Positions 5,888 through 48,796 of a stretch of DNA of 56,367 nt are shown here, one piece after another. The position numbers were made by a program, and so were the translations under genes. The DNA lies in the NCBI GenBank assembly GCA_002712285.1, contig PATC01000014.1:10402-66768 (forward strand), in the 5' to 3' direction. The notes beneath the pieces are model-generated. The model did not search any database, was not told the origin of the DNA, and saw only the letters and a list, made by a program, of their open reading frames with translations. The stretch is from Methanobacteriota archaeon (GTDB taxonomy: Archaea; Thermoplasmatota; Poseidoniia; Poseidoniales; Thalassarchaeaceae). How positions within the stretch are numbered: position 1 is the first letter of the stretch; each line of letters opens with the position of its first letter.

Positions 5888-6439
5888 ATGACCTCCGTAT
5901 CGGGCTTAGAACCAGGTAACAAAGCTGCAGATTTTACTCTTAAGAATGCTAATTTGAATGTCGGACCGGATACTATGAATCTTGCAGATATTATTGGGGA
6001 TTTAGGCGGCATTATTGTATTCACTTGCAACCATTGTCCATATGTTGTTGCGTCTGAATCACGTATTGAGAGCATGGCACAAAGATGTAACTTAGCAGGT
6101 CTTGGATTCGTAGGAATCAATTCCAATGATCCAATTGTATATGCAAACGATGATTGGGACCATATGGTCGATCGTGCAAACTCGATGAGTTATCCATATC
6201 TTCACGACCCTGAACAAACTATTGCTCACGCTTACGGAGCACAGAGGACACCCGAATTCTATCTTATCGATTCGTCATTTACAATCATCTATCGGGGTAG
6301 AATGGATGATTCTCCCCGAGATCCTAACGCTGCCTCTACGAGTGAACTTGATGATGCTGTTACAGCTCTTGTAACCGGTAATGCTGTAAAGGTCCCACGA
6401 ACCGAATCGATAGGCTGCTCGGTTAAGTGGAAGAATTGA
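5888..6439 (+). CDS. Thioredoxin-fold AhpC/TSA-family redoxin
   Basis: Motifs 'GNKAADFTL', CxxC 'FTCNHCPYV', 'AYGAQRTPEFYLID', 'YRGRMDD' and C-terminal 'GCSVKW'. Confidence 0.9.
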   Translation: MTSVSGLEPGNKAADFTLKNANLNVGPDTMNLADIIGDLGGIIVFTCNHCPYVVASESRIESMAQRCNLAGLGFVGINSNDPIVYANDDWDHMVDRANSMSYPYLHDPEQTIAHAYGAQRTPEFYLIDSSFTIIYRGRMDDSPRDPNAASTSELDDAVTALVTGNAVKVPRTESIGCSVKWKN

Positions 6440-6446
6440 TTTCCAA

Positions 6447-6549
6447 CTTACTGAAAAGTTCTGTAGGAACAATCCAGTAAGCCGAGGGTTCCGGAATCAA
6501 TCCGGCTGGGGCCCAAAGGGCGGTAAGTTTAGTCTGATGTTCAGACTAA
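6447..6549. other. Cluster of hairpins at and downstream of the Ubl-gene stop (structured 3' region, terminator or ncRNA candidate)
   Basis: Inverted repeats: cttactg/cagtaag (6447-6481, inner gttc/gaac), ccgga/tccgg (6491-6505), gccc/gggc (6511-6521), and a perfect 9-bp ttagtctga/tcagactaa (6529-6549) that includes the stop codon. Confidence 0.4.
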
Positions 6550-6759
6550 TCCTGCGACCATATGGCGAGTCACGATAACTTCAGCATTGTCTGAGATGTC
6601 GATGTTTGCGAGGGCATCGCGACGAACCATGCGGTTGTCTACGAAGACCCAGCGCTCGCCATCCAGAGCATTGACTTCGGCACGGAGGGCATCCGCATCG
6701 AGGTTCGCTAGGACCGTGTCGCCAGTAAGGTCGTGGATCTTGAGAGTAATGTTGCTCAT
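6541..6759 (-). CDS. Small ubiquitin-like (beta-grasp, ThiS/MoaD/SAMP-like) protein, 72 aa, ending ...HMVAG-LV
   Basis: SD GGAGG lies upstream of ATG 6759. Pattern is N-terminal strand 'ITLKIHDLTGDT', helix, 'WVFVDNRMV', final strand 'AEVIVTRHMVAG', matching beta-grasp order. GC- and C-ending codon bias is visibly higher than in neighbours. E1 and JAB genes lie within 3 kb on the same strand. Confidence 0.7.
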   Translation of the reverse strand: MSNITLKIHDLTGDTVLANLDADALRAEVNALDGERWVFVDNRMVRRDALANIDISDNAEVIVTRHMVAGLV

Positions 6760-6849
6760 TCGATCTTCCTCCATTGTTGACGTCATTCATGTTCGTTCGT
6801 TTAGCGTCTTTGAGACAATAGTAGCTTGTATTGGGGGTATATCAATCAT

Positions 6850-8061
6850 TCAAGATTCGATAACATTGGCAACTAGACGATTGATGAGACCACCGAACTT
6901 GTCAGTGACTGTATTGACTCGTTGTCTACTCACGCAGAGTGCGGAACTAATTTTTTTGAACACACGCTGACGGCCCTTGTGTTTGTTCATTCGGTCACAG
7001 AAACTAGCGGCAACAGCCCTCATGTTCTCGCCTGAGAGGCCACGATCTTTGGAAGCAACTCGCATCAATCCTCCAAGAAGTCTAGTGAGACGTCGTCCTT
7101 CTACAGAACCATGAATCCTCTCCATCGAAGGACCGACACTTTCGAGGACGGCCATAATCTCTGCTTCAGTCCACCGTGGCCGACCCATTATTTGAGCAGC
7201 ATCGAAATTCAGAATACTAGACGTTCTCTTTAGCTTCATTTCTGCACTCAGAATACTTTTGAGGTAATTCAAGATATTTTTCTTTTCAGTATGGATTACT
7301 TTCGGACTAAGACCGAATTCTTTGGCGACACGTTCAACTGAGAATGGCCTACCAAGCATTCGTGCAGCAATTGACATTGCAGCTATTGCAGCAACTGTTG
7401 CCGATTCACCCTTGTTGTTTCGAATGATAGTCTTTTGATCGCCTTCTTTTTTGGTGAGAGCTTGAAGGTGGCGGACTTGATTCAGTGGATAAGAAGGCTT
7501 TCTTCCGCCATTGTTATCCATCATTTTCTTGATGAGTGCGTAGTCAGAAGAATGCCGATTTTCTGACACAAGGTCATGGGTATCGAGTAGGATGCAATTA
7601 GCAGTATCTTTTACCGAAGGCTCTCCTGGCATTCGGGAACTTTCAATGATACGTTGTGCATTGCGTCGTAGGGTCGGACGTTCCGCCAATTCATTTCGTT
7701 GAATAGTTAACAAGCGTTTGTGGTAAGAACGTGCTGAAGGTGATGCACTACCGTTTATCGGGCCATTCCAAGTTGCATATGGACAACTACCAAGCCGATT
7801 CTTGTCACTACGTGCATAGATATCTCGACCACGATTACCAAGGTCACGGCCTATGTTTTCAATATCCGAAACACCTTGAAACACATCACAGTCGTCAAGT
7901 ACATTCGAACGAATAACAATACCATCTACGGCGCAGACGATCTCTCCACGCACTGAATCTTCGATAAATTTAGACCCGCCACATTCTGGACAGATGTCTT
8001 CATCCTTAGTGGGTGCACTCTGTTCCTCCTCATTCCAACTATCATATTGCTCCTCTACTAT
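6850..8061 (-). CDS. Divergent transcription factor B (TFB/TFIIB) paralog
   Basis: Reading upstream of the track's GTG (7953), the frame continues as 'EDICPECGGSKFIEDSVRGEIVCAVDGIVI', a TFIIB Zn ribbon with the fourth ligand Asp. Two cyclin-repeat HTH segments follow ('AIAAMSIAARMLGRPFSVERVAKEFGLSPKVI', 'KISSALCVSRQRVN'). No in-frame ATG exists before the stop at 8104-8106; ATA at 8061 sits 5 nt after SD GGAGGTG. The start position is uncertain. Confidence 0.75.
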   Translation of the reverse strand: MVEEQYDSWNEEEQSAPTKDEDICPECGGSKFIEDSVRGEIVCAVDGIVIRSNVLDDCDVFQGVSDIENIGRDLGNRGRDIYARSDKNRLGSCPYATWNGPINGSASPSARSYHKRLLTIQRNELAERPTLRRNAQRIIESSRMPGEPSVKDTANCILLDTHDLVSENRHSSDYALIKKMMDNNGGRKPSYPLNQVRHLQALTKKEGDQKTIIRNNKGESATVAAIAAMSIAARMLGRPFSVERVAKEFGLSPKVIHTEKKNILNYLKSILSAEMKLKRTSSILNFDAAQIMGRPRWTEAEIMAVLESVGPSMERIHGSVEGRRLTRLLGGLMRVASKDRGLSGENMRAVAASFCDRMNKHKGRQRVFKKISSALCVSRQRVNTVTDKFGGLINRLVANVIES

Positions 8062-8102
8062 ACGAACACCTCCAACGCGGACTTTTTCATTTATATGATA
8101 TA

Positions 8103-8121
8103 GTTATTAAACCTTTTTCTT
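8103..8121 (-). promoter_or_regulatory. Putative BRE+TATA promoter for the TFB paralog
   Basis: Minus strand reads AAGAAAAAGG-TTTAATAA-C, a purine-rich BRE followed by a TATA box, in a very AT-rich 130-bp gap, about 40 nt upstream of the inferred start. Confidence 0.55.
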
Positions 8122-8222
8122 AAAACTACTATCATAGCACATACTTTTACAGTTATTACTCAATTCAGAGTAAATTTGTGCTAACAAGTGTTTATGGTAT
8201 TCAGGGTATTTAAATCAATGAT

Positions 8223-8849
8223 TTAGAGATACTCACACATTGGGTCCCATTTTGTAATCGGATTAGTTGCCAACTGCTGATTAAAAAGGCGCTCATCATC
8301 AGTTACGTCCTCTCCAATCCAATCAGGTATGTCATATGGTCTATCTCCTTCATATTCTATTTCGGCAATCTTGAGTCCTTCATTAGCTCCTTTGAATATA
8401 TCAAACTCCCAAATGTAGCCATCCTTTGCTGGGATTTCCCATCGTATCTTTTCAATTGATGGAAATTCAGTTCTGGACAACTGTTCCTGGACCCATGAAA
8501 TATCTGTATCTGAGAGTTCCCACCCCAGTTCGATTCCTTCATCTCCTATCTTTGGACCTTTGACCTCAAGTTTAGCCTTATGCTGATTTTTAATCCTTAC
8601 ACGTATTGCTGAACCCGGCAGTTCAAGTGTCTTCTCGAGCAGGCCACTCGTTCTCCATTCTATCTGTTCCAGTGTTTCTTCCGGAACACGTTTGTCCATC
8701 AAGAAGACCCCCTCATCGATCTTAATGCTCTCTACATCAAGGTACCATTGTTGTATATGTACTCCATTAATTTCTGGAATACCATCTTCCCATGGCAGTT
8801 TTCGAATGAGATGTTTACGTTCTTTCTCAATGGGTTCTTCACCAGCCAT
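8223..8849 (-). CDS. CYTH / triphosphate tunnel metalloenzyme (CyaB/NeuTTM-like)
   Basis: N-terminal ExExK 'IEKERKHLI', then 'IQQWYL', 'IRVRIK...KLEVKG', 'WEFDIFKGANEGLKIAEIEY' and 'PDWIGEDVTDDERLFNQQLA'. SD-like GAGGGGG precedes ATG 8849. Confidence 0.9.
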   Translation of the reverse strand: MAGEEPIEKERKHLIRKLPWEDGIPEINGVHIQQWYLDVESIKIDEGVFLMDKRVPEETLEQIEWRTSGLLEKTLELPGSAIRVRIKNQHKAKLEVKGPKIGDEGIELGWELSDTDISWVQEQLSRTEFPSIEKIRWEIPAKDGYIWEFDIFKGANEGLKIAEIEYEGDRPYDIPDWIGEDVTDDERLFNQQLATNPITKWDPMCEYL

Positions 8850-8893
8850 GCACTTTTCCCCCTCTGCTTTTTTGTTTGAAGGTTCCACTTATC

Positions 8894-9133
8894 TTACGTT
8901 TGGGATTCAGACCACTGATCATGAGTTTTGATGGCCTGAGTAATATCAACCGAATAAATCCCAGCAATACGACAGGCTTCGATATGACCTAGGATTACTT
9001 CAATCAACTCATTCGTGGGCTCTCTATCCAGATGTTGTTCAATCCATTCTGCTATAGATTGGCCTAAGTTATGCTGGTCAATTGTTTCCCTAAGACGACG
9101 AACATCATCGTCTTTTGGTATTTCGATTTTCAA
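8894..9133 (-). CDS. 79-aa hypothetical helical protein, translationally coupled to the JAB gene
   Basis: TTG at 9133 overlaps the JAB stop (TTGA) and follows GGTGGAG. Protein begins MKIEIPKDDDVRRL. No family recognised. Confidence 0.65.
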   Translation of the reverse strand: MKIEIPKDDDVRRLRETIDQHNLGQSIAEWIEQHLDREPTNELIEVILGHIEACRIAGIYSVDITQAIKTHDQWSESQT

Positions 9134-9630
9134 AACTCCACCCCCGAAATCACCGGATAATATTGGATTTCTTCCTCTGTCCACATATTGAGCGGGTCTT
9201 CAAGACCATCTGGCAAGGATTCACCCATTTTCAAACGACATCTGGATCGTTTCCAATGATCATGGCCGAGGACAATTGCCACCTCAATGAGGCCAGCGAA
9301 ATTACGTAATGTAGCCCGATCGGTAAATGACCAATAAGCAGTCCAAGGATGTGTGTGAATCCATAGTCTGAAAGGTAGTACTGCTCCGATGGGGGGAGAA
9401 AGTCGTACTTCTCCTGAAGAACCAAGGTCAACGAACACCGTACCATCAGCATCTCTAATCCAGCTAACTTCGATTCCTAATGCATGACTCACATTCCATA
9501 ATTCATTCCAACGCTCTTGGATGCCAAGAATGCGTAGTGATTCGATTACCTCATCTTCCTGGTGGGCCCCATTTCTGATTTTTTGACAGAGTTGCTTCGA
9601 ATCTATTTCAGAGGTTTCTAAAACAGTCAT
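9130..9630 (-). CDS. JAB/MPN (JAMM-type) metalloprotease
   Basis: Catalytic Glu candidate 'GIEVSW' and 'WIHTHPWTAYWSFTD' (H-x-H-x6-S-x2-D, one residue shorter than the usual x7). ATGA overlap with the upstream ThiF stop. Confidence 0.8.
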   Translation of the reverse strand: MTVLETSEIDSKQLCQKIRNGAHQEDEVIESLRILGIQERWNELWNVSHALGIEVSWIRDADGTVFVDLGSSGEVRLSPPIGAVLPFRLWIHTHPWTAYWSFTDRATLRNFAGLIEVAIVLGHDHWKRSRCRLKMGESLPDGLEDPLNMWTEEEIQYYPVISGVEF

Positions 9631-10493
9631 TCTCCTACCTCCGCATTTGCATTTTCACGACTCATTAGTCGTCTTAATCGATGGAATATAGCATTCGGAC
9701 TGCGGCCTAATTTTCTTGAAATATCATCGAAATTTTTCCCACTATTTTCAAAATCATCCAAAAGTGTCAGATCATCTTTGTCGGTCCATGGTTTAGTTGC
9801 TTGCAGAGCAATATTTTTCCTTGATTGAATCGGAGTCCCAAAGATGTCAATACGCCCTCTTGAGATAGAGTCACATATTGAATCCGGGAATTCAGTTTCT
9901 TGGCCACACCTTCGGAGTAAAGAACGCATGACAGCATCTGCAAGATGAACAGCAGCATTTGCAAATCCAAATTGGATTGCGCCAGATTCGATTGCACCTT
10001 CGGGTTGACAGCTTGCTGGTAGATGTTCAGGCGTTAACGCATCTACCATTTCAGTATCCGTTCTGTCTGAGAGGAGTAATGTGAAATCTCCCATACATCT
10101 TGAGTCATACCACTCTGTATTTCTGAGAGAATGGACAATTCGACGAGGCTCAGGTCGATCAACAGCTACAATCACAATATGCGCATTCGATAGCAAATTT
10201 GAGTCCCGGAGATTGATGCTGTGAGGGATTACTTGTACAGCAGAGTGAATGACGCCTAAAGTTTCAGCGAGAGCATCGACTTTTGCCATTCCGATTTGAT
10301 TCAGGGTGAACCGTTGATGTATAAGATTCTCTTCTTCGACTTTATCGGCATCATATAGATGAAATTCTATTTCACCTAGTTGTTCAGCCAGGACACCATT
10401 CCTTAGTGCATTCACAAGCAGAATACATGTGTTTGAGCCAATACCTCCTGCTCCTATTATGCTGATGTTCAGGGGTTCAGTATTCATGGACAA
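9627..10493 (-). CDS. ThiF/MoeB/E1-like adenylating enzyme with a C-terminal Myb/SANT-like HTH
   Basis: Rossmann 'IIGAGGIGS', 'YDADKVEEENLIHQRF', 'GMAKVDALAE', 'AVDRPEPR', and candidate thioester Cys in 'PASCQ'. No CxxC Zn pairs. C-terminus is 'KPWTDKDDLTLL...FDDISRKLGRSPNAIFHRLRRL'. Start could be 10487. Confidence 0.88.
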   Translation of the reverse strand: MSMNTEPLNISIIGAGGIGSNTCILLVNALRNGVLAEQLGEIEFHLYDADKVEEENLIHQRFTLNQIGMAKVDALAETLGVIHSAVQVIPHSINLRDSNLLSNAHIVIVAVDRPEPRRIVHSLRNTEWYDSRCMGDFTLLLSDRTDTEMVDALTPEHLPASCQPEGAIESGAIQFGFANAAVHLADAVMRSLLRRCGQETEFPDSICDSISRGRIDIFGTPIQSRKNIALQATKPWTDKDDLTLLDDFENSGKNFDDISRKLGRSPNAIFHRLRRLMSRENANAEVGE

Positions 10494-10561: not shown

Positions 10562-11296
10562 ATGGACGAAGACGCCCCATTTTCTCCAGACGCTAAGGAT
10601 GCCCTGTGGCTAGTGTCTATGATTCATGAAGAAATGGATATCTGGGGTCCTCTCAAGGAATCTGCAGCAATTCAGAGATGGCGCCGTCATCCTCGTATTC
10701 TCTTACATGATAGAAACGGTCTTTTTGGTCATGCGGTTCTTGATCGGCTTGGCTCTTCAATAGAGTTGAGAACTGTTGTGCTTGATTCCCGGGTTCGGGG
10801 GCAGGGTCGTTCCCATGAGCTAGTTGAACAAGCAGTTTCAAGATGGTATCAAGATGCTCTTCTCCATCGAGTCACACCCCCGCTCGAATTATCTTCTAGG
10901 CGTCCATTGTTATCTTGGACTCGGAGTGCAGCTCTTGCTGCAACATACCATCGCGCTAGATTTTCTTTAGTGCAGCCTGAACGCCGATGGAGCCGCCTTT
11001 GGCTCTTCAAGTCCTCACTTGCAACTCTGCCTGTAAGATTGCAGATATCTGTTGCTTTGAATCGAATATTTCGTGGTATTTCCATGCTGTTTCAAGATCC
11101 TAACAGACTTCGATACCAAATCCGGCATTTGCGAGAATATCACTTATTCATTTTAGATCCAAAATCACCTATCCAGGGATTATCTCGTGCACATCCGATG
11201 TCAGAGATTACTGCCGTCACAGGTCGGCATTTAATTGACATTGAAGAGAGCCAATTACAGGCTTTTGTCGACTGGGACTCAACTGAGGAGGGATGA
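10562..11296 (+). CDS. GNAT-like acetyltransferase domain protein
   Basis: Acetyl-CoA-binding motif A-like 'ELRTVVLDSRVRGQGRSHELVEQAV'; the remainder is unrecognised. Confidence 0.6.
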   Translation: MDEDAPFSPDAKDALWLVSMIHEEMDIWGPLKESAAIQRWRRHPRILLHDRNGLFGHAVLDRLGSSIELRTVVLDSRVRGQGRSHELVEQAVSRWYQDALLHRVTPPLELSSRRPLLSWTRSAALAATYHRARFSLVQPERRWSRLWLFKSSLATLPVRLQISVALNRIFRGISMLFQDPNRLRYQIRHLREYHLFILDPKSPIQGLSRAHPMSEITAVTGRHLIDIEESQLQAFVDWDSTEEG

Positions 11297-12441: not shown

Positions 12442-15400
12442 ATGGAACAAATGACATTGAATCAGAAGATGAATCAGGCCAAACGCCAGACTTCAGCCCT
12501 TACATTAGTGGTGCTGATGATTATGAGTACCACACTTGCATTACTTCCCGTTACAGCCGATGATGGTGATATTGACATGGGCATTTTCGGCCCGGCGGGG
12601 GATCGCACCCCAATTCAGTCTGCTAATCAGGGCAGCCCTCAGCAAGGTAGTGCACCCGTACCTGGAGCCCTAGATCAATCACGCCTTAATCACCCTGCTC
12701 TTAGAGATCCGGCTTGGACCGACATTCTTGCTGGCACTGGAAAGGTTGGAGATATTTCAGCTCTTCAACTTCGATCAGAAGCCTACTCATTCCTTCTTGA
12801 AGAGACCAATCTTGGTGATCATGACAATGATGGCATAGGTGATCTCGACGACCTTGACGACGATAACGACGGTATCTACGATTTAATTGAGCGATTTGAC
12901 GGCTGTTTTGGTACTGATCCACTTGATCACGACAACGACGGCATCGTAGATGAGTTTGATTTTGATGATGATAATGACGGTATCCTCGAGGGGCCAATTG
13001 ATTACACACAAGGTGCAGACCCGCTGAATGTTTCTACTGATCGCTATGTCGAACCTTCGACGATTCACCCATGGACACTTACTGCAGTTGGTGTAGGATA
13101 CATGGTTGATCAGAATCCATTAGATCGTGACAATGACGGAGTGAATGATGAAGATCCAGATGGTAGTGGCCGCGAATCCTTCGATGAGGATGATGATAAC
13201 GATGGCCGCCTTGATCAATTCAAGTGGCCTTGTGACTTCGATTATGATGGAGTTCAAGACTATTTCGATGATGACGATGATAACGACGGAGTTATGGATT
13301 ATATGGATCGCGATCCATACAATTCTAGCATTACCCAGACCATGGAAGCGGCTGCTGGAGCAAGCTCATCTGACGAATTAGTCTACGATGAAGCAGTCCC
13401 CTGGACATTCAACAATTACGCATTATACTCTTTCAGTATCGATTATGTGACACTTGAATCGCAATATCATCCTAACTCTCCAGCATTCACATCGATTGTA
13501 GATGGTGACCTTGATGGTGACGGCATTCCGAACTTCCTTGATCCAGATAACGATGCAGATGATTTACCAGATTCAGCGGACACAGATGATGACAATGATG
13601 GCATTTTGGATATGTTCGATCCTGACGATGACAATGATGGAATCAAGGATGTCTGCCTTCGTATCGATACTAACGGCGATGGAAACATAGACTATCCTGG
13701 CGTTACGGGAGCACTTGAGACTCCTGGAATCGATTGCGAGATCGATTATGATAGAGATTTAGATGACGATCGTTGGCGTGCAATTGATCAGGATTACGAT
13801 CTAACTCCAGATTGGTTTGATACGGATATGGGCGGCCTTGCATCACCAGACAACGATCTCGGCCCCCCTGCTGTTAACATCAATGACGAACCCTGGGACT
13901 GGGATAATGATGGTCTTCAAAATGAAAATGATTCGTTCATGAATGCGACAGTGGCTCAAGTTGGACCTAATGGATGGAACTGTCCTACTCCAACTAATAA
14001 GAATCCAACTAACCCTGCACCTGAGTGTTTGACAGAACGAAAATCGTATGTTGGGAATAACGATTGGGATGGTGACGGTATCAACAATTGGTATGATTAC
14101 GATGACGATAACGACGGATTGCCAGATTTCCTTGACATCGATTGGAATTGCGATCTCGATGATGACAATGATCTGCATCTGATTAATGGTTCACGATTTC
14201 TCGATGATGGACCAAATTCCATTGATTCTGATATCGATGGTGACGGACTCAGCAATGATGAGGATTGGGACGATGACAATGATGGAATCAATGACCTCTA
14301 TGATCCCGATGATGGTAACTGTGGTGTTTTGGATATCGATGCTACGGATGATTTCTCTCAGCCGTACTTCCCTGTCTCTGATGGTGCCGATATCGATGGT
14401 TCTCTAGATGGTCAATTGTACAACACCAACATGTCTGACTTCTGGAACATGAGTCACACCACGAATCCATTTACGCTTGCGAATGGATTTGTTGTTCCAT
14501 ACAACGGATACAATCCCACTACGAACCCAATCACTAACGGTGCAGTGCCTGAGTTCTATTGGTACTACATCAGTCGATGGAGTCCGTGGAATGGCGACAA
14601 TCATTGGGATATTGATTCAGATGGTGACTCGCTTGTCAATGGACTTGATGTCGATCAAGACGGTGATGGTTTACCTGATGGTTGGGATCAAGACGAAGGT
14701 AATGACGGAGTTTTAGATATCGATGATTTCCGCATGGGTGGAACTGTAAATGCCGAGGATACTTGTGGATGGACTACAGTAGCCGGGTATACTTGCGGAT
14801 ATGAATACGCATTCAATTACATGCTTCCATTGGATCAAGGTACTAATTTCCAGTATTCGAAGGCATACAGTATTCGGCCTGATTCAGGATACACTGATGG
14901 ACAGTATGACGGAGCGAATAGCAATGGTAATTGGGATTGTTTCGAGGTTAGCTGTTGGCACTTCGAATTCAACGGCCAAGTAACTGCAGCCGTTACTTAC
15001 GATCAGATAGCCAATAATCGTGATTTGATGATTGCATGGCTCGGTCTAGGTCAGGGCTTATTCAATTGGAATGCAGACATCAATGGGAATTTCTTCCCAG
15101 ATGAGTACGCTGATTTGCTCAATGATAGCGTAGACCCAGACGATGATTGTGGGGCACCCAATGCAGGTACACCTAATCCACAGTGCATGTTCAATGATAC
15201 TGCGGATTTAGACGATGATTTCGATGGAATTTACGATCATTGGGATGTTGATGATGATAATGATGGAATTTGGGATTTCTTTGAGATTGATACAAACGAC
15301 GATCTTGATGATGATGCTAATACCCTACCTCCTGGCAATTTCTTTACTGGAACTAACTGCTTCGATAATGACGACGATGGTACGGATACTGATCCCGATG

Positions 15401-18400
15401 AGGATGGCTTCTTCCAAGCAGTTTGGGATAAAGGCGTGCTTGGGCAGGGTCTTATCTTCCCCGAGTACTATGATGTGGATAACGACAATGATGGAATCGT
15501 AGATACAGAGGATCCGGATGATGACAACAATGGTGTACTTGACGTCGTTCAAGAATTGACTTGTTTCATTGGTGAAGAACAGCATCCATTTGACCATGAT
15601 AATGATGGAATTCCAGATGGTAAGGGAGAGACTGATTGGGATATGGATGGTATCTCCAATACTGTTGAGCTTGCAAATCAAACCCCTTGGATTAGCCCCT
15701 GGGATCACGATAATGATGGAATTCGCGATGACCTTGATCTTGACGATGATTCAGATGGTATGCATGACGAGGACGAGATTCTTCTTTGGCCTCAACGTTA
15801 CAACAACGAGTCCACAAATCCATGGGATCACGATGATTTCGGTGGCGGACTCGGCATTGCAAACCCATCTGATCCATCGACTGGACCAGATGTTATCGAC
15901 AATGATGACGACAATGACTCGCGAATTGATGTAGATTGGGACCAGATTGAAGACAATGAGCTAAGTTCAGACTGGGATAGCGATAATGACGGAGTTCTCG
16001 ATGAGGATGACAAGATTCCAACTCGTGTCAATATGAGTATTCCTGGAACTATGTGGATGGATGGCAAGAAGGCAGCAATTTTCTCAGGTTCTGTTTCATG
16101 GCTTGACCCTGCATTGAACCAGTTCGTTCCTGCACCAAATTTGCCAGTCCAAGTGACCATAGAATGGGCTGGGAATGGTACTGAAGCAGTACAGACAATC
16201 GACGTCCTATCCTCCCAGTTTGGTGGATTTACTGTTGGACAATTCCTCCTTCCAGAAGATCTTGATGTGGGTCCAAATACAACCTACAATGCCTATGCTG
16301 AGGTCACAGAGATGTTCATCCATGATGGTAGTACCTCCGAGATGTATCCACTTGAGATTCGAGCGAATACAACCTTCGATTATGTTGCTCCAGAGTACTT
16401 ACGAAGCGGTGAAAACCCCCTATATCTCGACTTTAAGACACATTATTCTGCAGATTGGGATCGTGGAATTTTCAACAACCGAATCAAGTATGCTCCCGTT
16501 GCTTTCGATGTCTCCGGAGGACCGTTTGGTGACCGTCAGAATCCATCTACCTTCGATGGCGCTGGTCAAGGATTCCGTGCTGATTCTGGTGGATATGTTT
16601 CATTGACATTTGTCCAAAACCAAGGTGCTCAAGGTGAGTGGAAACAAGTCCGTTACAATGCATCTCTCAACAACGGACCAGGTACAATCCCCGGTGGTTA
16701 CGAGGAAATCATTTGGAATGGCTTCCTGAATGACCATGATGTTGTGGGTACTTACGTGTACACGAATACTACTCTTCCCAAGGGCAATTACGAGTTCAAC
16801 GGCGAGGTCAATATGTCCTATGCCGGTCCTAATGAGTGGCCCTTCCCCTGGCTAGAAGGAGATGAAACCGATGCATTCGTAATCAAATCAGTAGAGCGTA
16901 TGTTCATTGGTTCACGAATTATCGTCCCTTCACACAATCCAGTATTCTTCTGGGATTCACAGCAGTTTACAGGAGCATATTTCGGTGCTTGGCGCCCAAT
17001 GTTTAGTGAAGCCGGATTGGTTAATGCTGGTTATGATACGGACATGAACAATCAGATTTCACCCTCAGAATTTGCAGCTGTATCTTCGGGTCGCCAATAT
17101 GCAGTTCTTTGGAATGACAACCCTGCAGATCTGCCACTTGGTGATGCATCAGCAAACATCGATTCCCCATTACGTGACTTCGTGACTACGAACAGTACTC
17201 ACTGGTTTGTTTCGATGGTCAATGGAGCAGATTCGAATGTGCCACCTTGTGGGCCAGTAGACCCATTAGATCAGAATAGTCCAGTCCGTTGTGAGATTGT
17301 TCCAGAAATGAATACAGGTGAGACATTTGGAACAGTTGGCGATGTGAAGAATCGTACCTTGGTTCCATGGACTGACGGTGCTACAGTTCTCCAGGTAGAT
17401 TTAGATCAAGACAGTGTATTTGCTGGCAGCCGTGAGAGCGTGAATCCAAAATATCCAGCTCTATCTGGAGGCCTTGCGGTTATGGATTTCAACTGGACAT
17501 GGCGTACTGAATATCAGGCTTTGACCTATGGAGTAAAGGTTGACTTTGTAGATTCCAACTTCTTCTTCACGGGTAATCAGACTTACACGCTTTCGCCTAC
17601 CGGTGCTCACGTGAATGTTTCAGTGGTTGGAACAACGGATTTCCAATTGAATACAGTACCTGTACTCTATCGTGGAATGAATACCACACTTGAAGCGCGT
17701 TTGATTGACAACTCGTTACAACCGGTTCCCTTCCAGCCAGTGAATTGGACCTGGTCTGCGAATGGCACATCAGGTCTCGCACAGACTGATGTGAATGGTG
17801 TCTTCAAGATACCATTGAACATTAGCAAAAGCCACGATCTCGGAAATTTCTCAATGACGTTTGGCTTCCCTGGGACACAGCGTCTGAAGAGTTCGAGTGT
17901 AACTCAAGCGCTTTGGGTCGTTAGCAGGACTTTCATCAATCTTGAAGCAACGACTTCAGGGGAACGATCCAGTGGCGATGTATGGTCAGTATCAGCTCAA
18001 GTTACTGATGATAATCGAACGCCATCAATTCGTGATCTTGGACAAGCTCTTGACGGCATTGGTGAAAATGGTGGACGAGTGTTACTAATCTTTGAAGGAA
18101 CGGATTTTGATAATCGGCAGCATAGACGTATCATTACAGAATTGACGCCCAATGCAGGCTCAGTTTACCACGAGATGCTGTTGAATCCCCAGTTACTGAA
18201 GGATGATCCAGAATCATTCCTACCGGATGGCTTTGGACCAGTCAATGTAATTCTTCGATTTGAGGAGAATTTACCTCATGAGGGATGCGTCGCTCTTGAA
18301 GAATGGATGCTTTCGATGCAAGGCGCATGGGACCCATGTACATCGATTCCTAACAACGAGCATTTCCGACGTGAACTGCAGTACAATGTTGACGGCTTCT

Positions 18401-20157
18401 ATCTTCGTGGTCGAACTACATTGGATGTTGATGATCAGATTGTTTACACGAGTGAAGTTAACCCAGTTACGGGCGAGGTTGTCGAAAAGCCGATGACTGT
18501 CACAGGTCGTTTGACTGATGAACTTGGAGGAAACTTGTCCAACCGTGATATTCAGATTAGTTATCAGATGACTGGATCAGCAGCCGATGTACCACAATGT
18601 GAAGCTGGACGTACAGATCAAGAAGGGTACTTTGAGATTGATTGCCCATTGAATGGTGTTTTCGCAGGTCAAGCGCAGGTTACTGTTCGATATAATGCGG
18701 ATTTGAACAATGACGGCTATCGTTTCAAGGATGCTACCGTAATCAAGAATTTCGCAGTTTTCTCAAACAGCACTCTGAATATCGAAGAGGTTGGACCATT
18801 CCTTACTGATGTTGACCGGTATGTCTTCGCTGGTAATGGGACCAGTATTCCAGTTCTCTATCTCAAGGAACCATTCCATGTCCATGCCGCACTCTCCCAG
18901 AGTAATGGGAATATGCTTGGTGGACGTTGTCTGAATATCTATCTCAGTCCTGAAATCAACCCACGACCAATCGCATCTGCAGTTACAGATGATGCAGATG
19001 GCCGTATTGAGTGGTATTCAGGAGATCCTGAACAGAACCCAAGTCGTCGAGGTGTTGAACCGATCGGCGGACAAGGTCTCGAAGGATTCCGTACTCTTCG
19101 TGTTGCATACGAGCCTAAGATGGAAGTCAGTGGAGGCTGTGGACAGGAAGCAAACGCTGTAGTCAATGGTTCACACATGGACATCACGGTACTCGTACGC
19201 AGCCGTGTTGACATCATCCTGAAGGATACTTGGTCTAAGGCGGACGGGTACCAACCAGATGAATGGGTAAACGGTACTGTTCAAGTCATGCGTGATCGGC
19301 TCGATGTACCGGTTTCTGGTGAACAAGTAATGTTCATTCGCGAGTACTGGAATGGTACTGATTGGGTGCTTGAGAACATCGATTACCAGACAACACTCGA
19401 CAATGGAGAAGCCTCCTTCGCTTGGCAGTACACTGCTGAGGATGTAGCCGGTAGTGACGAAACTGCAGTGGGTGGTAAGTGGCGTATACTTGTGCAGTTC
19501 AGGGATTCCCCTCTCTTTGAGCAGACATTCCTCAATAATACACCAGAGATTGTCCTTGGAGATGAGCCAATGGCTGAACAGACAAGTGGTTTGTTCACTG
19601 CCCAGGTCATGCTTCCACTACTGATTGCCCTACTTCTTGCAGCAGTGATTGGTGCTGTGATGTACCGTAACTATCAGGAACGTCGGCGAATTGAGATTCT
19701 CCGAGGAATCCTGACAGATTCTCTAATGTCATTACGTGCCTCTAACGAGTATATTCAAGCAATTTTCGATTGTTGGAAGCAACTAGTTTCGTTCTTCCGA
19801 AGTAAGGGTGCGATGAAGAAGGTCTACGAAACCACACGTGAGTTTGAGGACGCAGTTAATCGTATGCTTGGAGGTATTACACCACCTCACGAGTTGGATG
19901 CATTCCTCAGCCTCTTCGAGGAAGCACGTTATTCTGATCACGAAATCGGTGCAGCTCAGCGCGACCGTGCAATCCAAACTTTGCAGGCAGTGGTGAATAG
20001 CCTCACTCTTGCACTCGGCGAGACTCAACTTGCGAGAGCTGTTGATGAAGGTAGTCGATACGAGAATCTGACTAAGGCCGGAGAATTCGTTGATGCAGAT
20101 GGTCAACTACGCCAAGCTGGTCTTGGTGAGGATGGCGCAGATAATTTCTCTCTGTGA
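12442..20157 (+). CDS. Giant cell-surface protein: TSP3-like DxDxDG Ca-binding repeats, beta-sandwich stalk, TM helix, cytoplasmic DUF4129-like domain
   Basis: Signal-like N-terminus and dozens of D-x-D-N/G-D-G-x-x-D motifs over about the first 1190 aa. Ig-like beta-rich middle, TM 'VMLPLLIALLLAAVIGAVMY', then 'ETTREFEDAV...ELDAFLSLFEEARYSDHEIG' typical of DUF4129. Confidence 0.85.
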   Translation: MEQMTLNQKMNQAKRQTSALTLVVLMIMSTTLALLPVTADDGDIDMGIFGPAGDRTPIQSANQGSPQQGSAPVPGALDQSRLNHPALRDPAWTDILAGTGKVGDISALQLRSEAYSFLLEETNLGDHDNDGIGDLDDLDDDNDGIYDLIERFDGCFGTDPLDHDNDGIVDEFDFDDDNDGILEGPIDYTQGADPLNVSTDRYVEPSTIHPWTLTAVGVGYMVDQNPLDRDNDGVNDEDPDGSGRESFDEDDDNDGRLDQFKWPCDFDYDGVQDYFDDDDDNDGVMDYMDRDPYNSSITQTMEAAAGASSSDELVYDEAVPWTFNNYALYSFSIDYVTLESQYHPNSPAFTSIVDGDLDGDGIPNFLDPDNDADDLPDSADTDDDNDGILDMFDPDDDNDGIKDVCLRIDTNGDGNIDYPGVTGALETPGIDCEIDYDRDLDDDRWRAIDQDYDLTPDWFDTDMGGLASPDNDLGPPAVNINDEPWDWDNDGLQNENDSFMNATVAQVGPNGWNCPTPTNKNPTNPAPECLTERKSYVGNNDWDGDGINNWYDYDDDNDGLPDFLDIDWNCDLDDDNDLHLINGSRFLDDGPNSIDSDIDGDGLSNDEDWDDDNDGINDLYDPDDGNCGVLDIDATDDFSQPYFPVSDGADIDGSLDGQLYNTNMSDFWNMSHTTNPFTLANGFVVPYNGYNPTTNPITNGAVPEFYWYYISRWSPWNGDNHWDIDSDGDSLVNGLDVDQDGDGLPDGWDQDEGNDGVLDIDDFRMGGTVNAEDTCGWTTVAGYTCGYEYAFNYMLPLDQGTNFQYSKAYSIRPDSGYTDGQYDGANSNGNWDCFEVSCWHFEFNGQVTAAVTYDQIANNRDLMIAWLGLGQGLFNWNADINGNFFPDEYADLLNDSVDPDDDCGAPNAGTPNPQCMFNDTADLDDDFDGIYDHWDVDDDNDGIWDFFEIDTNDDLDDDANTLPPGNFFTGTNCFDNDDDGTDTDPDEDGFFQAVWDKGVLGQGLIFPEYYDVDNDNDGIVDTEDPDDDNNGVLDVVQELTCFIGEEQHPFDHDNDGIPDGKGETDWDMDGISNTVELANQTPWISPWDHDNDGIRDDLDLDDDSDGMHDEDEILLWPQRYNNESTNPWDHDDFGGGLGIANPSDPSTGPDVIDNDDDNDSRIDVDWDQIEDNELSSDWDSDNDGVLDEDDKIPTRVNMSIPGTMWMDGKKAAIFSGSVSWLDPALNQFVPAPNLPVQVTIEWAGNGTEAVQTIDVLSSQFGGFTVGQFLLPEDLDVGPNTTYNAYAEVTEMFIHDGSTSEMYPLEIRANTTFDYVAPEYLRSGENPLYLDFKTHYSADWDRGIFNNRIKYAPVAFDVSGGPFGDRQNPSTFDGAGQGFRADSGGYVSLTFVQNQGAQGEWKQVRYNASLNNGPGTIPGGYEEIIWNGFLNDHDVVGTYVYTNTTLPKGNYEFNGEVNMSYAGPNEWPFPWLEGDETDAFVIKSVERMFIGSRIIVPSHNPVFFWDSQQFTGAYFGAWRPMFSEAGLVNAGYDTDMNNQISPSEFAAVSSGRQYAVLWNDNPADLPLGDASANIDSPLRDFVTTNSTHWFVSMVNGADSNVPPCGPVDPLDQNSPVRCEIVPEMNTGETFGTVGDVKNRTLVPWTDGATVLQVDLDQDSVFAGSRESVNPKYPALSGGLAVMDFNWTWRTEYQALTYGVKVDFVDSNFFFTGNQTYTLSPTGAHVNVSVVGTTDFQLNTVPVLYRGMNTTLEARLIDNSLQPVPFQPVNWTWSANGTSGLAQTDVNGVFKIPLNISKSHDLGNFSMTFGFPGTQRLKSSSVTQALWVVSRTFINLEATTSGERSSGDVWSVSAQVTDDNRTPSIRDLGQALDGIGENGGRVLLIFEGTDFDNRQHRRIITELTPNAGSVYHEMLLNPQLLKDDPESFLPDGFGPVNVILRFEENLPHEGCVALEEWMLSMQGAWDPCTSIPNNEHFRRELQYNVDGFYLRGRTTLDVDDQIVYTSEVNPVTGEVVEKPMTVTGRLTDELGGNLSNRDIQISYQMTGSAADVPQCEAGRTDQEGYFEIDCPLNGVFAGQAQVTVRYNADLNNDGYRFKDATVIKNFAVFSNSTLNIEEVGPFLTDVDRYVFAGNGTSIPVLYLKEPFHVHAALSQSNGNMLGGRCLNIYLSPEINPRPIASAVTDDADGRIEWYSGDPEQNPSRRGVEPIGGQGLEGFRTLRVAYEPKMEVSGGCGQEANAVVNGSHMDITVLVRSRVDIILKDTWSKADGYQPDEWVNGTVQVMRDRLDVPVSGEQVMFIREYWNGTDWVLENIDYQTTLDNGEASFAWQYTAEDVAGSDETAVGGKWRILVQFRDSPLFEQTFLNNTPEIVLGDEPMAEQTSGLFTAQVMLPLLIALLLAAVIGAVMYRNYQERRRIEILRGILTDSLMSLRASNEYIQAIFDCWKQLVSFFRSKGAMKKVYETTREFEDAVNRMLGGITPPHELDAFLSLFEEARYSDHEIGAAQRDRAIQTLQAVVNSLTLALGETQLARAVDEGSRYENLTKAGEFVDADGQLRQAGLGEDGADNFSL

Positions 20158-46406: not shown

Positions 46407-47435
46407 ATGTACATGGCGGCCCTGTTTGATCGACGGGGTCGCTCATTCCGCGATCTCAGAATCTCTGTGACTGATCGTTGCAATATGCGCTGCGATTATT
46501 GTATGCCAGCCGATGTTTTCGACTCCAATCATGACTTTCTTCCACGTAGTGATTTGCTAACTTTTGAAGAAATCAATGAGGTTGTGACTTCACTCATACC
46601 TCATGGACTGAAGAAGATTCGAATTACTGGTGGCGAGCCGTTGCTTAGACGCGATCTCGATGTCTTAATCAGAATGTTAGCCAAACACCCCTTGGATTTG
46701 GCATTGACAACAAATGGCCTTCTTTTTCCTAGTCGTGCAGTAACTCTCGCTGATGCTGGCCTAAATCGTGTCACTTTTAGTCTCGATAGCCTCGATCCTG
46801 AGATATTTGAGAAAATTACTGGGAAATCAGGAGATTCGATTCATCGAATCATTGACGGAATTGAGATGGCAGTAACGCTGGGACTTAGTCCAGTCCGAAT
46901 TAATTCTGTAATCCGTAGAGGTGTGAATGAAGAAGATATTGAACGTCTGATAGAACGTTTTAGACATCTTCCAGTAGCGTTACGATTCATTGAATTCATG
47001 GATGTAGGCAATCATAATCGTTGGGATCTTGCATCGGTTGTACCCAGTGAAGAAATACGTAGACTAGTGAAAGACCGCTGGGATATTCAACAGATACCTT
47101 CCCTGCATACTGGTCAAGTAGCCAAGCATTGGTCCTTGGATTCAGATACAGGATTCGAAGTCGGATTTATTTCATCAGTTACAGAACCCTTCTGTGGAGA
47201 TTGTAATCGAGCAAGGCTTTCAGCAGATGGCCATATCTACACATGTCTATTTGCAACATCAGGACACGACTTACGTCCTGTTCTACGGAATCCTGATTGT
47301 CTGGAAACAATAACAGAACGTTTCCAAAAGATTTGGTCTGATAGAGAAGATCGCTATTCAGAACTTCGTGCACAACCAAGAAGTTCTACTACGATTCATC
47401 TCCCAAGAGTTGAGATGTCCTATATTGGTGGCTGA
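46407..47435 (+). CDS. moaA: GTP 3',8-cyclase (molybdopterin biosynthesis)
   Basis: 'LRISVTDRCNMRCDYCMP' (radical SAM), 'TGGEPLLR', 'FCGDCNRARLSADG...CLF', C-terminal 'MSYIGG'. Confidence 0.97.
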   Translation: MYMAALFDRRGRSFRDLRISVTDRCNMRCDYCMPADVFDSNHDFLPRSDLLTFEEINEVVTSLIPHGLKKIRITGGEPLLRRDLDVLIRMLAKHPLDLALTTNGLLFPSRAVTLADAGLNRVTFSLDSLDPEIFEKITGKSGDSIHRIIDGIEMAVTLGLSPVRINSVIRRGVNEEDIERLIERFRHLPVALRFIEFMDVGNHNRWDLASVVPSEEIRRLVKDRWDIQQIPSLHTGQVAKHWSLDSDTGFEVGFISSVTEPFCGDCNRARLSADGHIYTCLFATSGHDLRPVLRNPDCLETITERFQKIWSDREDRYSELRAQPRSSTTIHLPRVEMSYIGG

Positions 47436-47436
47436 A

Positions 47437-48774
47437 TCAGTTCTTTGACGTGGTTAACTCCAGAGCTAGGTCGTGAATTAGTGACCAAGGAGCAGCGGTG
47501 CGGATGCCTGGATTTGGATAAGCAGCAACACAGGAAGAATGCCCTGCTTCTGTAAGGGCTTCCGCAAGTTTGCGAGGTGATGGAGGGCCTTGGAGAAGGA
47601 CATGAGGATGAAGTCGATCAACAAGAATCAATGAAGCGTTAGTTGGAACAGTGGCTTCTTCCTGCAAATGACGAATAGCACGCAAAACATTCTTTCGAGA
47701 TTCCTCGATAAGTTCTACATGTTTCGATGTGTCGAAGCCCCACCGTTGTAACTTTTCAGTATCAGGTACACAGAGTCTAAGTGCAGTTTCCTCATTGAAT
47801 CCAAGTAAAACATCAGAGTTGTGTAGTGCTCCAATCCACATTGGCCCGCTGATTCTCCGATTTTTGCCTGAGATGTTATGTGAGGTTGGATGACGGAAAG
47901 GTAGGAAACAGAATGGTTGCGATTGTTCAGGGTTACCATGAGGGTGCAATCCTGCGTCGATGGAAATTTTTAGTTCATCTGGGGTAGGGCCCCATACTCG
48001 CCAACCGATGTTATCTTCAACATTCGAAGCACCCTGTTTTGAGCGACGGATTGCAACACTAACTCGAAGATGATGTGTTTCCCAAACGGAAAGTAATGGT
48101 TCAATTGCACGATCGTGGCATGCAGCAACTCGTGCGATATTAGCTAAGAGAACCCTCAGGCCTGAGTCATGAGCCCAATCATTGGTGCGTACGACTGCTC
48201 CGTACCGTCGCATTGTTGGCCCCTTGCTCGAACCTGTTAGTGCAGCCGAATCAGTTGCACTCACTTCCAGAATTCCGGTTCGAGCGAATGCTTGAATCAC
48301 TGGATCTAGGAACGTGACTGGCGAGCCAAATGGATCGAGGTCAATCCAATGCCAGCCGTTACTGAGAACTCGTGCTCGCAGATCACCTTCAATCAAAGTG
48401 AGTGTCTTCCCTTCCTCAAAACGCTCTTGATTTTGTCGAGCCCATTCTAACGAACTGGGTAGTATATCGCACACATGTGCATCGATTCTTTGTGACATTT
48501 CCTCTGGGAGTTCGTTAATCCAACGACGCGCTCGGATTCCCGAAGCACCCAATCCGTCCAAGGCTCGAAGAGTTCCTTTTGGTAACCATCCGAGTTCGAA
48601 CAATCGATGCATCAGAAGCACAGAACGGGTTCGACTACCATTCATTGCAGGGTTGTGAAACACTTCTCTTGTTGATTTGGCTCCAGGGCCACGTCCGAAA
48701 TGTTCGTCGATGTTTTCAGGGGCGGGTAGTAACATTGGCGTTGCACCTTCAAGACCAAGCTCAGCCCCCTCCAT
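47437..48774 (-). CDS. trm1: tRNA (guanine26-N2)-dimethyltransferase
   Basis: 'VFHNPAMNGSRTRSV', 'LDGLGASGIRARRW', 'WIDLDPFGSP', 'VSATD', 'HDSGLRVLL', 'GPMWIGALH'; start 48774 or 48822. Confidence 0.9.
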   Translation of the reverse strand: MEGAELGLEGATPMLLPAPENIDEHFGRGPGAKSTREVFHNPAMNGSRTRSVLLMHRLFELGWLPKGTLRALDGLGASGIRARRWINELPEEMSQRIDAHVCDILPSSLEWARQNQERFEEGKTLTLIEGDLRARVLSNGWHWIDLDPFGSPVTFLDPVIQAFARTGILEVSATDSAALTGSSKGPTMRRYGAVVRTNDWAHDSGLRVLLANIARVAACHDRAIEPLLSVWETHHLRVSVAIRRSKQGASNVEDNIGWRVWGPTPDELKISIDAGLHPHGNPEQSQPFCFLPFRHPTSHNISGKNRRISGPMWIGALHNSDVLLGFNEETALRLCVPDTEKLQRWGFDTSKHVELIEESRKNVLRAIRHLQEEATVPTNASLILVDRLHPHVLLQGPPSPRKLAEALTEAGHSSCVAAYPNPGIRTAAPWSLIHDLALELTTSKN

Positions 48775-48796
48775 GGCATGACCGTAGCGTGGATGG

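Follow-up and report, generated by a model that had tools for sequence, protein, structure and literature searches.

The stretch of DNA described here, 56,367 nucleotides of contig PATC01000014.1 (assembly GCA_002712285.1, positions 10,402 to 66,768 of the forward strand; the whole stretch is called the window), belongs to a 1.7 Mb assembly of the order Poseidoniales, family Thalassarchaeaceae. The genus of the window is designated g1 and its sister genus g2. A cluster of six genes, located on the minus strand between positions 6541 and 10493, probably encodes a protein conjugation system based on a ubiquitin-like protein (Ubl). All six open reading frames (ORFs) were real, and the one-strand layout proposed in an earlier, sequence-only reading of the window was maintained. 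The features of the cluster, and one candidate component encoded elsewhere in the window, are the following (aa, amino acids; nt, nucleotides):

9627-10493, minus strand: E1-like enzyme with a Myb tail (E1-Myb), 288 aa, Pfam ThiF and Myb domains
9130-9630, minus strand: JAMM/MPN+ metalloprotease, 166 aa, motif E54...H92-T-H94-x6-S101-x2-D104
8894-9133, minus strand: small helical orphan protein, 79 aa, TTG start
8223-8849, minus strand: CYTH/triphosphate-tunnel metalloenzyme, NeuTTM-like, 208 aa from a conserved ATG
8062-8222, no strand: AT-rich intergenic gap between the CYTH and TFB-paralog genes, G+C 35-38%
6850-8061, minus strand: divergent TFB/TFIIB paralog, 403 aa from ATA 8061-8059 or 367 aa from GTG 7953
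6541-6759, minus strand: Ubl precursor, 72 aa, C-terminus ...HMVAG-LV, GGAGG 8 nt before the ATG
48797-50080, minus strand: Cys-domain protein, candidate fifth component, 427 aa, unlinked, 38 kb from the cluster

The gene junctions were those described in the sequence-only reading. The E1 and JAMM genes share ATGA and the JAMM and 79-aa genes share TTGA (stop-start overlaps of 4 nt each), and the CYTH gene starts 44 nt past the small ORF. The intergenic gap at 8062-8222, earlier taken for an AT-rich promoter, was indeed lower in G+C content than its surroundings (about 45%) in the composition profile; its promoter function is suggested by this composition, and the gap probably comprises a terminator plus a promoter, with a GGAGGTG ribosome site at the TFB-proximal end. 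Apart from it, the G+C content of the cluster was not island-like.

The beta-grasp fold claimed for the 72-aa protein was recovered in an AlphaFold2 model built on a 34-sequence alignment (predicted local distance difference test score, pLDDT, 84.6), with the order beta-beta-alpha-beta-beta-alpha-beta. Nearly all the weak matches of this model in Foldseek were Ub, UBL, SUMO, MoaD or SAMP1 structures, and single-sequence and profile searches of the Ubl against PDB and Pfam gave nothing usable. The terminal Gly was invariant in 34 of 34 aligned Ubl repeats and was followed by zero to two aligned tail residues or by a linker. Since the last Gly is always trailed in this way, processing is needed, and the sequences show the Ubl to be made as a precursor with a masked, activatable Gly. 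Repeats end in Gly-Gly (GG); two lineages have Ala-Gly (AG) instead, with internal and terminal repeats altered in concert. Single-copy Ubls of more distant relatives end in GG-L, GG-LG, GG-QI and similar termini, and in other genera the GG carries a tail of 1-6 residues.

In Poseidoniaceae, the sister family, the Ubl gene is unlinked from E1-JAMM and encodes two to three head-to-tail repeats in one ORF, each ending in Gly-Gly; the last repeat of these poly-Ubl proteins carries 1-6 extra residues. Identity among the repeats of a single protein is 37-86%, and this divergence, together with the invariance of the last Gly, indicates selection on the C-terminus of every repeat. The fold proposed earlier was upheld, and the polyubiquitin-like form had been missed. 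Natural fusions were also found, namely Ubl-Ubl-E1 (L064, P0047 and P0050, of which P0047 is present on five contigs) and E1::JAMM (L075, L077 and P0058, the last representing a cluster of 181 sequences); by their sequences, they constitute Rosetta-stone evidence tying Ubl, E1 and JAMM together. A further E1 of this family, P0036 (424 aa), has a 210-residue N-terminal extension of unassigned nature in place of the Ubl repeats.

The E1-like enzyme consists of a minimal adenylating domain (residues 1-215; Pfam ThiF, PF00899, 52.5 bits against a cut-off of 28.1, E 4.9e-14) followed by a Myb/SANT-like helix-turn-helix (residues 234-276, positions 9666-9794; Pfam Myb, 25.0 bits, 2.1e-5, above the cut-off). 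The GxGGxG motif (GAGGIG), D48, D50, K71, D112 and Cys162 (SCQ) were invariant in an alignment of 18 orthologs. Cys162 lies about 50 residues past D112, is invariant in host and viral copies and is probably the site of thioester formation. The lack of CxxC pairs, already pointed out in the sequence-only reading, was evident when the protein sequence was read, and no rhodanese domain was detected in a Pfam scan. NCBIfam models for ThiF, MoeB, MoeZ and UbaA gave 18-68 bits against cut-offs of 152-647; with 17.9 bits for SAMPActivE1UbaA (cut-off 450), the enzyme is not a UbaA ortholog. In the profile search against PDB it was equidistant from MccB, UBA3, UBA6, Uba4, MoeB and ThiF (1e-9 to 1e-7). 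PADLOC returned an E1-E2 (Cap2-type) model at 1.8e-11, covering the generic adenylation domain alone, and a weak BilD match at 0.027.

Residues E54, H92, H94, S101 and D104 of the JAMM protein were invariant in an alignment of 16 orthologs; the spacer before the Ser is of six residues in the window genus and of seven in Poseidoniaceae. No match was obtained for it in the Pfam, NCBIfam and PADLOC libraries. When the family profile was searched against PDB, 16 of the 19 matches were JAMM deubiquitinases, with AMSH-LP, Sst2, STAMBP and an Rpn11-like protein at E values of 0.004-0.06. The family is small and closed, with 150 relatives among 1.84 billion representative proteins, and in a 301-genome sample of the phylum it was confined to Poseidoniales. 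Its seeming absence from genome G016 in whole-genome searches is due to a run of N that interrupts the gene (L022 8260-8365, G016:C48) and is not a real loss.

The 79-aa protein is helical, has a conserved N-terminal motif, (R/I)xPxDD(E/D)E, and had no Pfam or PDB match in single-sequence and profile searches. At almost every locus examined in the order its gene comes directly after that of JAMM, and from the shared TTGA its translation is predicted to be coupled to that of JAMM. The small ORF had been listed before; its membership in a four-gene core had not been perceived, and it is classified here, on comparative grounds, as the fourth core component and an obligate partner.

Judged from gene content and order, the core of the system is formed by the Ubl, E1, JAMM and the 79-aa protein and is order-wide in Poseidoniales. 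The E1-JAMM pair was present in 20 of 20 neighbourhoods from both large families, with the 79-aa gene next to it in nearly all. E1 was found in 45 of 61 relatives and the Ubl, by profile search, in 64 of the 121 genomes of the order; among the genomes searched for both, 31 had both, 16 had neither and none was discordant (p = 7e-13). In several genera of Thalassarchaeaceae the Ubl gene is directly upstream of E1. Synteny of the full six-gene block, with its flanking TPR, Redoxin and membrane genes, is restricted to the window genus, which is deep: between its subclades the TFB paralog is 27% and the CYTH protein 33% identical. The core is usually single-copy and located amid housekeeping genes. 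Sequences in the E1 tree grouped by family and genus, a congruence with taxonomy that fits vertical inheritance and not island-like transfer. One genome (L074, G117:C1:168000-186000) has a second, divergent cassette at 6523-8983, in the order Ubl ending in VFG, 167-aa JAMM, 74-aa protein ending in LGGV, 254-aa orphan and 222-aa E1; the E1 of this cassette clusters with the main E1 of that genus.

A fifth candidate component, overlooked in the earlier list although encoded in the same window, is the Cys-domain protein at 48797-50080. Its N-terminus has a CxxC...CxxC zinc knuckle, and an invariant Cys (EICAFD) and the motifs GD and LLND mark the C-terminal domain. In 121 genomes, this protein and the Ubl were found together in 63, the Ubl alone in one, the Cys-domain protein alone in seven and neither in 50 (p = 4e-25). 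In five genera, at least 17 genomes have its gene at most 2.5 kb from that of the Ubl or of JAMM, and in the cassettes of genus g15 homologs directly follow the 79-aa gene. There are two to three paralogs per genome, and the family had no relative in Pfam and PDB. A carrier or ligase function, that is, an E2-like role, is possible for this protein. A 369-aa gene located after the 79-aa gene was considered as TFB-like and rejected; it is unrelated to TFB and belongs to the Cys-domain family.

The host profiles of JAMM, E1, Ubl and the TFB paralog retrieved nothing when scanned against IMG/VR, nor did tblastn of E1 retrieve anything from GenBank phages. The viral copies came to light only through a divergent JAMM representative, which pointed to a virus-like metagenomic contig and from there to nine contigs in IMG/VR, the longest of 64 kb, with 31-37% G+C; these viral sets had escaped the earlier description of the components. 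On L230, the viral contig that was annotated, genes for ribonucleotide reductase, a clamp loader and a chaperonin are present. Six of the nine contigs encode a Cys-domain protein, then a 185-204-aa E1 and then a 164-249-aa JAMM, and in three of these six a Ubl ending in GG-DY, GG-V or GG-Y is located further upstream. The viral E1s form a separate, long-branched clade in the E1 tree. The position of the Cys-domain gene next to E1-JAMM on viral contigs gives independent support to this protein as a component. On the viral and virus-like contigs with E1-JAMM (L229 and L230-L238) there are also small ORFs that terminate in GG and one or two more residues; the 75-aa ORF of L229 (3011-3238), ending in LGGP, was not recognised by the Ubl profile and may represent a second viral modifier family.

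The TFB paralog was confirmed as a genuine member of its family. Its TFIIB zinc ribbon matched Pyrococcus furiosus TFB (1pft) at 9.7e-8 in the profile search against PDB, and Pfam Zn_Ribbon_TF (PF08271) was present in six of eight orthologs. Alignment with canonical Poseidoniales TFB by hhalign gave 97.5% probability (E 5e-12) over 285 columns that include both cyclin repeats. The Pfam TFIIB repeat was not detected in the paralog or its orthologs. The AlphaFold2 model (pLDDT 65.9, low global template modelling (TM) score) retrieved TFIIB, Brf1/Brf2, cyclins and Pyrococcus woesei TFB (1ais_B) in Foldseek, with a best E of 9.6e-4. The linker between the zinc ribbon and the two cyclin-like helical domains is predicted to be disordered and is poorly conserved. 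Two to three canonical TFBs per genome exist besides this paralog.

The listed frame of the TFB paralog, 6850-7953, is open and conserved up to 8061. The triplet ATA at 8061-8059 lies exactly where the orthologs L013 and P0071 start with ATG, with GGAGGTG 5 nt upstream, and P0077, 98% identical, was called from a start six codons further upstream. The zinc ribbon of the window copy lies upstream of the first canonical start codon. The ATA is either a non-canonical start, or a start-codon loss removing half of the zinc ribbon, or an assembly error. At 7930-7945 (CAVDG) the fourth zinc ligand is Asp, so that the ribbon reads CPEC...CAVD in the window; this CxxC...CxxD form is also present in L013, L014, P0071 and P0078; a deeper subclade of the window genus keeps CxxC...CxxC.

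This TFB orthogroup was found in the window genus and g2 only, which is also the distribution of the Myb/SANT tail on E1. In both genera it adjoins the Ubl gene, in g2 despite an E1-JAMM pair located 6 kb away. Genera g4 and g6 have Ubl, E1::JAMM and the small protein, in this order, and then a different zinc-ribbon TFB-like protein. TFB-like genes are linked to the system in four genera of Thalassarchaeaceae, which bears out the TFB partner of the earlier reading, and none was found linked in Poseidoniaceae. By gene neighbourhood, the transcription link is recurrent but lineage-restricted. In Poseidoniaceae the adjoining genes encode an RFC-like AAA+ protein (identified by its sequence), a glycosyltransferase, a GDP-mannose dehydratase, a FadB-like enzyme and Tyw1, and in Thalassarchaeaceae g7 the Ubl gene lies beside those of FtsZ and ribosomal protein L15e (likewise identified by sequence).

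The CYTH protein has the invariant residues ExExK (E21-x-E23-x-K25), R96, R98, K110, E146, K147, E176 and E178 and matched NeuTTM (2fbl/3typ) at 1e-18 by profile; its Pfam score, 18.1 bits, is below the cut-off of 23.2. Homologs are single-copy in 72 of the 121 genomes, inside the cluster in the window genus only and outside it elsewhere. They are absent from several Ubl-bearing genera, with a phyletic pattern unlike that of the Ubl. Phyletic pattern and position rule it out as a core partner, and it is probably a neighbour acquired in the window genus. Because it is linked in one genus and differs in pattern from the Ubl, the analogy with a nucleotide enzyme of the cyclic-oligonucleotide-based antiphage signalling system (CBASS), made in the sequence-only reading, is without comparative support. 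Two viral CYTH matches were generic.

Taken together, the locus is considered to encode a Poseidoniales-specific Ubl protein-conjugation system, with a rough probability of 0.6. That Ubl, E1 and JAMM form a functional module is regarded as very probable, and attachment of the Ubl to proteins as somewhat favoured. Of the earlier reading of the cluster as a conjugation module, the Ubl/E1/JAMM module and the TFB paralog were retained, and the CBASS or defence connection and the CYTH partner were not supported. By its sequence, the Ubl is made with its Gly masked, as VAG-LV in the window, as GG with a short tail elsewhere, and as poly-Ubl or Ubl-Ubl-E1 in Poseidoniaceae. In the proposed mechanism, the JAMM protease, with its intact catalytic motif, would trim the tail or cut after each Gly-Gly, and probably would also strip the tag from targets. 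The minimal E1, with intact ATP-binding motifs, would adenylate the freed Gly and probably form a thioester on Cys162. The tag would be transferred to target lysines directly, as in archaeal sampylation, or, more likely, via the Cys-domain protein. In the window genus and its sister genus, linkage suggests that the system may be wired to transcription initiation through the Myb/SANT-tailed E1 and the fast-evolving TFB paired with the Ubl, which could be a tagging target or adaptor, or a dedicated initiation factor.

Several observations weigh against this interpretation. The Ubl model had no PDB match at E <= 0.001, and the terminus of the window Ubl is Ala-Gly (VAG-LV), not Gly-Gly. The JAMM identity stands on the motif and on marginal profile E values (best 0.004). 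No similarity to UBC folds could be detected in the Cys-domain protein. The zinc-ribbon proteins of g4 and g6 are weakly related to the TFB paralog (hhalign 77%), no TFB-like gene was found linked to the cassette or to poly-Ubl in Poseidoniaceae, and the window TFB paralog is without a canonical start, having no in-frame ATG, GTG or TTG before GTG 7953. Finally, the best structural match of the Ubl is MoaD (3rpf_C, TM 0.59), and the nearest NCBIfam models of the E1 are of the ThiF type (PRK08644 68.5 bits, thiF_fam2 38 bits), though at about 40% of cut-off scores.

The last two points would also favour an unlikely alternative, in which the Ubl is a thiocarboxylate sulfur carrier like ThiS, MoaD or QbsE and the E1 only adenylates it, for a thio-cofactor, a thio-metabolite or thiolated tRNA; JAMM would only unmask the Gly, as QbsD does on QbsE, or hydrolyse an adduct, as Mec+ does on CysO. 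A GG with two further residues that a JAMM trims off is precisely the layout of QbsE/QbsD. Ubl-ThiF fusions, moreover, are known in thiamine contexts (PMC1779556). However, all ThiF/MoeB equivalog scores were far under their cut-offs, CxxC pairs and rhodanese are lacking, and the annotated neighbourhoods contain no adjacent sulfurtransferase, ThiG, MoaE or NcsA-type gene, in agreement with the earlier statement that no thiamine or sulfur-relay gene is adjacent. A MoeB-like E1 of the canonical kind (Pfam ThiF 1e-75) and a ThiS/MoaD protein are encoded elsewhere in each genome; this speaks against sulfur carriage as the only role and sets the module apart from thiamine and molybdenum cofactor (Moco) relays, as had been assumed; the window itself contains MoaA, and Moco synthesis would therefore use the canonical MoaD/MoeB pair. 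GG-keeping tandem repeats, a co-evolving Cys-domain protein, TFB/Myb links and viral copies are without precedent in sulfur relays. Even less probable is antiviral defence or conflict of the Bil, Bub or type II CBASS kind, in which the Ubl would tag viral proteins or activate a signalling enzyme, with CYTH in the place of the CD-NTase. The Cap2-type and BilD matches from PADLOC, the second cassette of L074, the fast evolution of the partner proteins, and the Ubl, Cys-domain protein, E1 and JAMM encoded by the viral contigs themselves, suggestive of host-virus conflict or mimicry, would agree with it. Nevertheless, those PADLOC matches cover a generic domain, and Pfam and PADLOC scans gave no E2, CD-NTase, effector or DUF6527 partner; the core is order-wide, mostly single-copy, among housekeeping genes and tracks taxonomy, CYTH is unlinked outside the window genus, and the G+C content of the cluster is not that of an island. 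The defence reading advanced earlier was consequently not sustained.

Within the conjugation reading, the role of the transcription factor is a separate matter. The TFB paralog and the Myb tail may lie outside the mechanism, the former as a syntenic neighbour or the cluster's own factor and the latter as an autoregulator of the operon; this is possible, though not favoured. It would explain the lack of a linked TFB-like gene from Poseidoniaceae and from several genera of Thalassarchaeaceae, the limitation of the true orthogroup to two genera, the equal synteny of the flanking Redoxin and TPR genes with the Ubl gene, and the missing start codon of the window copy. On the other hand, the TFB-Ubl pair was kept in g2 at a distance from E1-JAMM, g4 and g6 have independent zinc-ribbon TFB-like genes after the cassette, and Myb tail and TFB orthogroup coincide in distribution. 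An action of the system on transcription initiation is likewise proposed only tentatively. More doubtful is the wider proposal that Marine Group II archaea and large double-stranded DNA viruses of the IMG/VR type each have a private Ubl pathway with polyubiquitin-style precursor genes, a JAMM maturase and a new, non-UBC Cys carrier or ligase, wired in Thalassarchaeaceae to the pre-initiation machinery through the Myb/SANT-tailed E1 and the TFB paralog, where tagging would switch promoter usage. If true, regulation by tagging the transcription machinery would have arisen in archaea separately from the ubiquitin lineage of Asgard/TACK.

Among known systems, sampylation (SAMP1-3/UbaA/HvJAMM1 of Haloferax volcanii) and Sulfolobus Urm1/ELSA/JAMM share with the present one an archaeal beta-grasp modifier, a single-domain E1-like enzyme, a JAMM that acts on the modifier C-terminus or on conjugates, and the lack of a UBC-type E2 and a RING E3. 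In contrast with sampylation, the E1 here is not the UbaA ortholog and a separate canonical MoeB/UbaA-like E1 exists, the Ubl has a masked Gly or is in tandem, the cassette is dedicated, with the 79-aa partner and the Cys-domain protein, and a dual sulfur-carrier role is without evidence. Type I Bub systems, class 6E of Iyer, Burroughs and Aravind 2006 (PMC1779556), resemble it in their peptidase-E1 fusions, in a JAMM cutting a Ubl fusion after Gly and in an accompanying metal-binding protein. Bub systems (Ye et al. 2024, bioRxiv 10.1101/2024.11.21.623953) are fused in the order JAB-E1, have an E1 that works without a catalytic Cys (oxyester chemistry), join their Ubl to a UBC-like E2 and include a serine protease, DUF6527. 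In the present system fused proteins have the order E1-JAMM, Cys162 does not vary, every repeat keeps its GG, and neither an E2 nor DUF6527 was matched at the locus (Pfam, PADLOC); inheritance is vertical in an archaeal order, whereas Bub is sporadic in bacterial islands. The poly-Ubl proteins are also unlike the bacterial Bil/Bub Ubl_2/Ubl_3, treated in the Bub papers as single multi-domain proteins, and mirror eukaryotic polyubiquitin. From Bil (BilABCD, with the E2 BilB and the tandem-domain E1 BilD) the system differs in the lack of BilB, the marginal BilD match and the single-domain E1.

The eukaryote-like ubiquitin operons of Caldiarchaeum subterraneum and Asgard archaea (Ub, E1, E2, RING E3 and Rpn11; PMC6043591, PMC5654768) likewise combine a JAMM with a modifier in an archaeal operon; the present system shows no sequence kinship to ubiquitin, no UBC E2 and no RING E3, and its E1 is minimal and single-domain. 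CsRpn11, the JAMM of Caldiarchaeum (PMC6043591), is reported to mature a pro-ubiquitin with a C-terminal extension and also to deconjugate, and it is, with BubC cleaving BubAB (bioRxiv 10.1101/2024.11.21.623953), a precedent for the processing of Ubl precursors by JAMM. Eukaryotic polyubiquitin resembles the Poseidoniaceae proteins in the head-to-tail repeats, the Gly-Gly ends and the extra residue or residues on the last repeat. It differs in that these have short linkers, repeats as divergent as stated above and no sequence homology to ubiquitin, in that the window copy is a single unit, and in that the processing enzyme would be JAMM and not USP/UCH. In QbsE/QbsC/QbsD and CysO/MoeZ/Mec+, Ubl residues after GG are removed by a JAMM and the Ubl gene is beside an E1-like enzyme; E1s of the QbsC/MoeZ type, however, contain a rhodanese domain and are encoded in biosynthetic operons alongside enzymes that accept the sulfur, and nothing of the kind is present here. 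Type II CBASS similarly encodes an E1-like domain and a JAB peptidase together (Cap2/Cap3), but here a free Ubl is present, CYTH is not a conserved partner, and no CD-NTase or E2 domain was found (Pfam, PADLOC).

The best reading of these comparisons is that JAMM-matured, sometimes polyubiquitin-like precursors and new partner families set the system apart within prokaryotic Ubl conjugation. No account of it was found in literature on Poseidoniales or Marine Group II and ubiquitin or ubiquitin-like proteins, the one mention of Marine Group II being of RING/UCH genes in a single-cell genome; the statement that no system with this combination had been described thus held for the searchable literature. 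Poseidoniales are among the most abundant archaea of the surface ocean and are uncultured, and a dedicated, vertically inherited Ubl system in them is apparently undescribed. It bears on the evolution of ubiquitin through its GG-keeping polyubiquitin-like genes, its Ubl-E1 and E1-JAMM fusions and two orphan partner families, one with an invariant Cys, and it would imply that traits regarded as typical of eukaryotic ubiquitin, tandem precursors matured by a deubiquitinase, arose outside the Asgard/TACK lineage. As a minimal system of four or five proteins it could be reconstituted in vitro, and the TFB pairing, the Myb-tailed E1 and the complete viral copies lead to testable hypotheses on what the tag regulates.

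Other genes were recorded around the components. An AhpC/Redoxin-family gene (5888-6439, plus strand) is convergent to the Ubl gene and adjoins the Ubl-TFB pair in g1 and g2, an arrangement taken as synteny. The gene p244 (10562-11296) and that of the membrane protein p154 show synteny in parts of the family only and lack informative domains. On one side of the Cys-domain gene are MoaA (46407-47435, plus strand) and a Trm1-type tRNA methyltransferase (47437-48822, minus strand), the latter with a 26-nt overlap, and on the other is an AIR-synthase-related protein (50128-51237, minus strand). Just past the cluster, positions 12442-20157 (plus strand) encode a 2571-aa protein with many acidic repeats of the DxDxDG type and a C-terminal membrane anchor; its counterparts in the three nearest genomes of the genus (L013, L014 and L019) share 92-96% identity with it.

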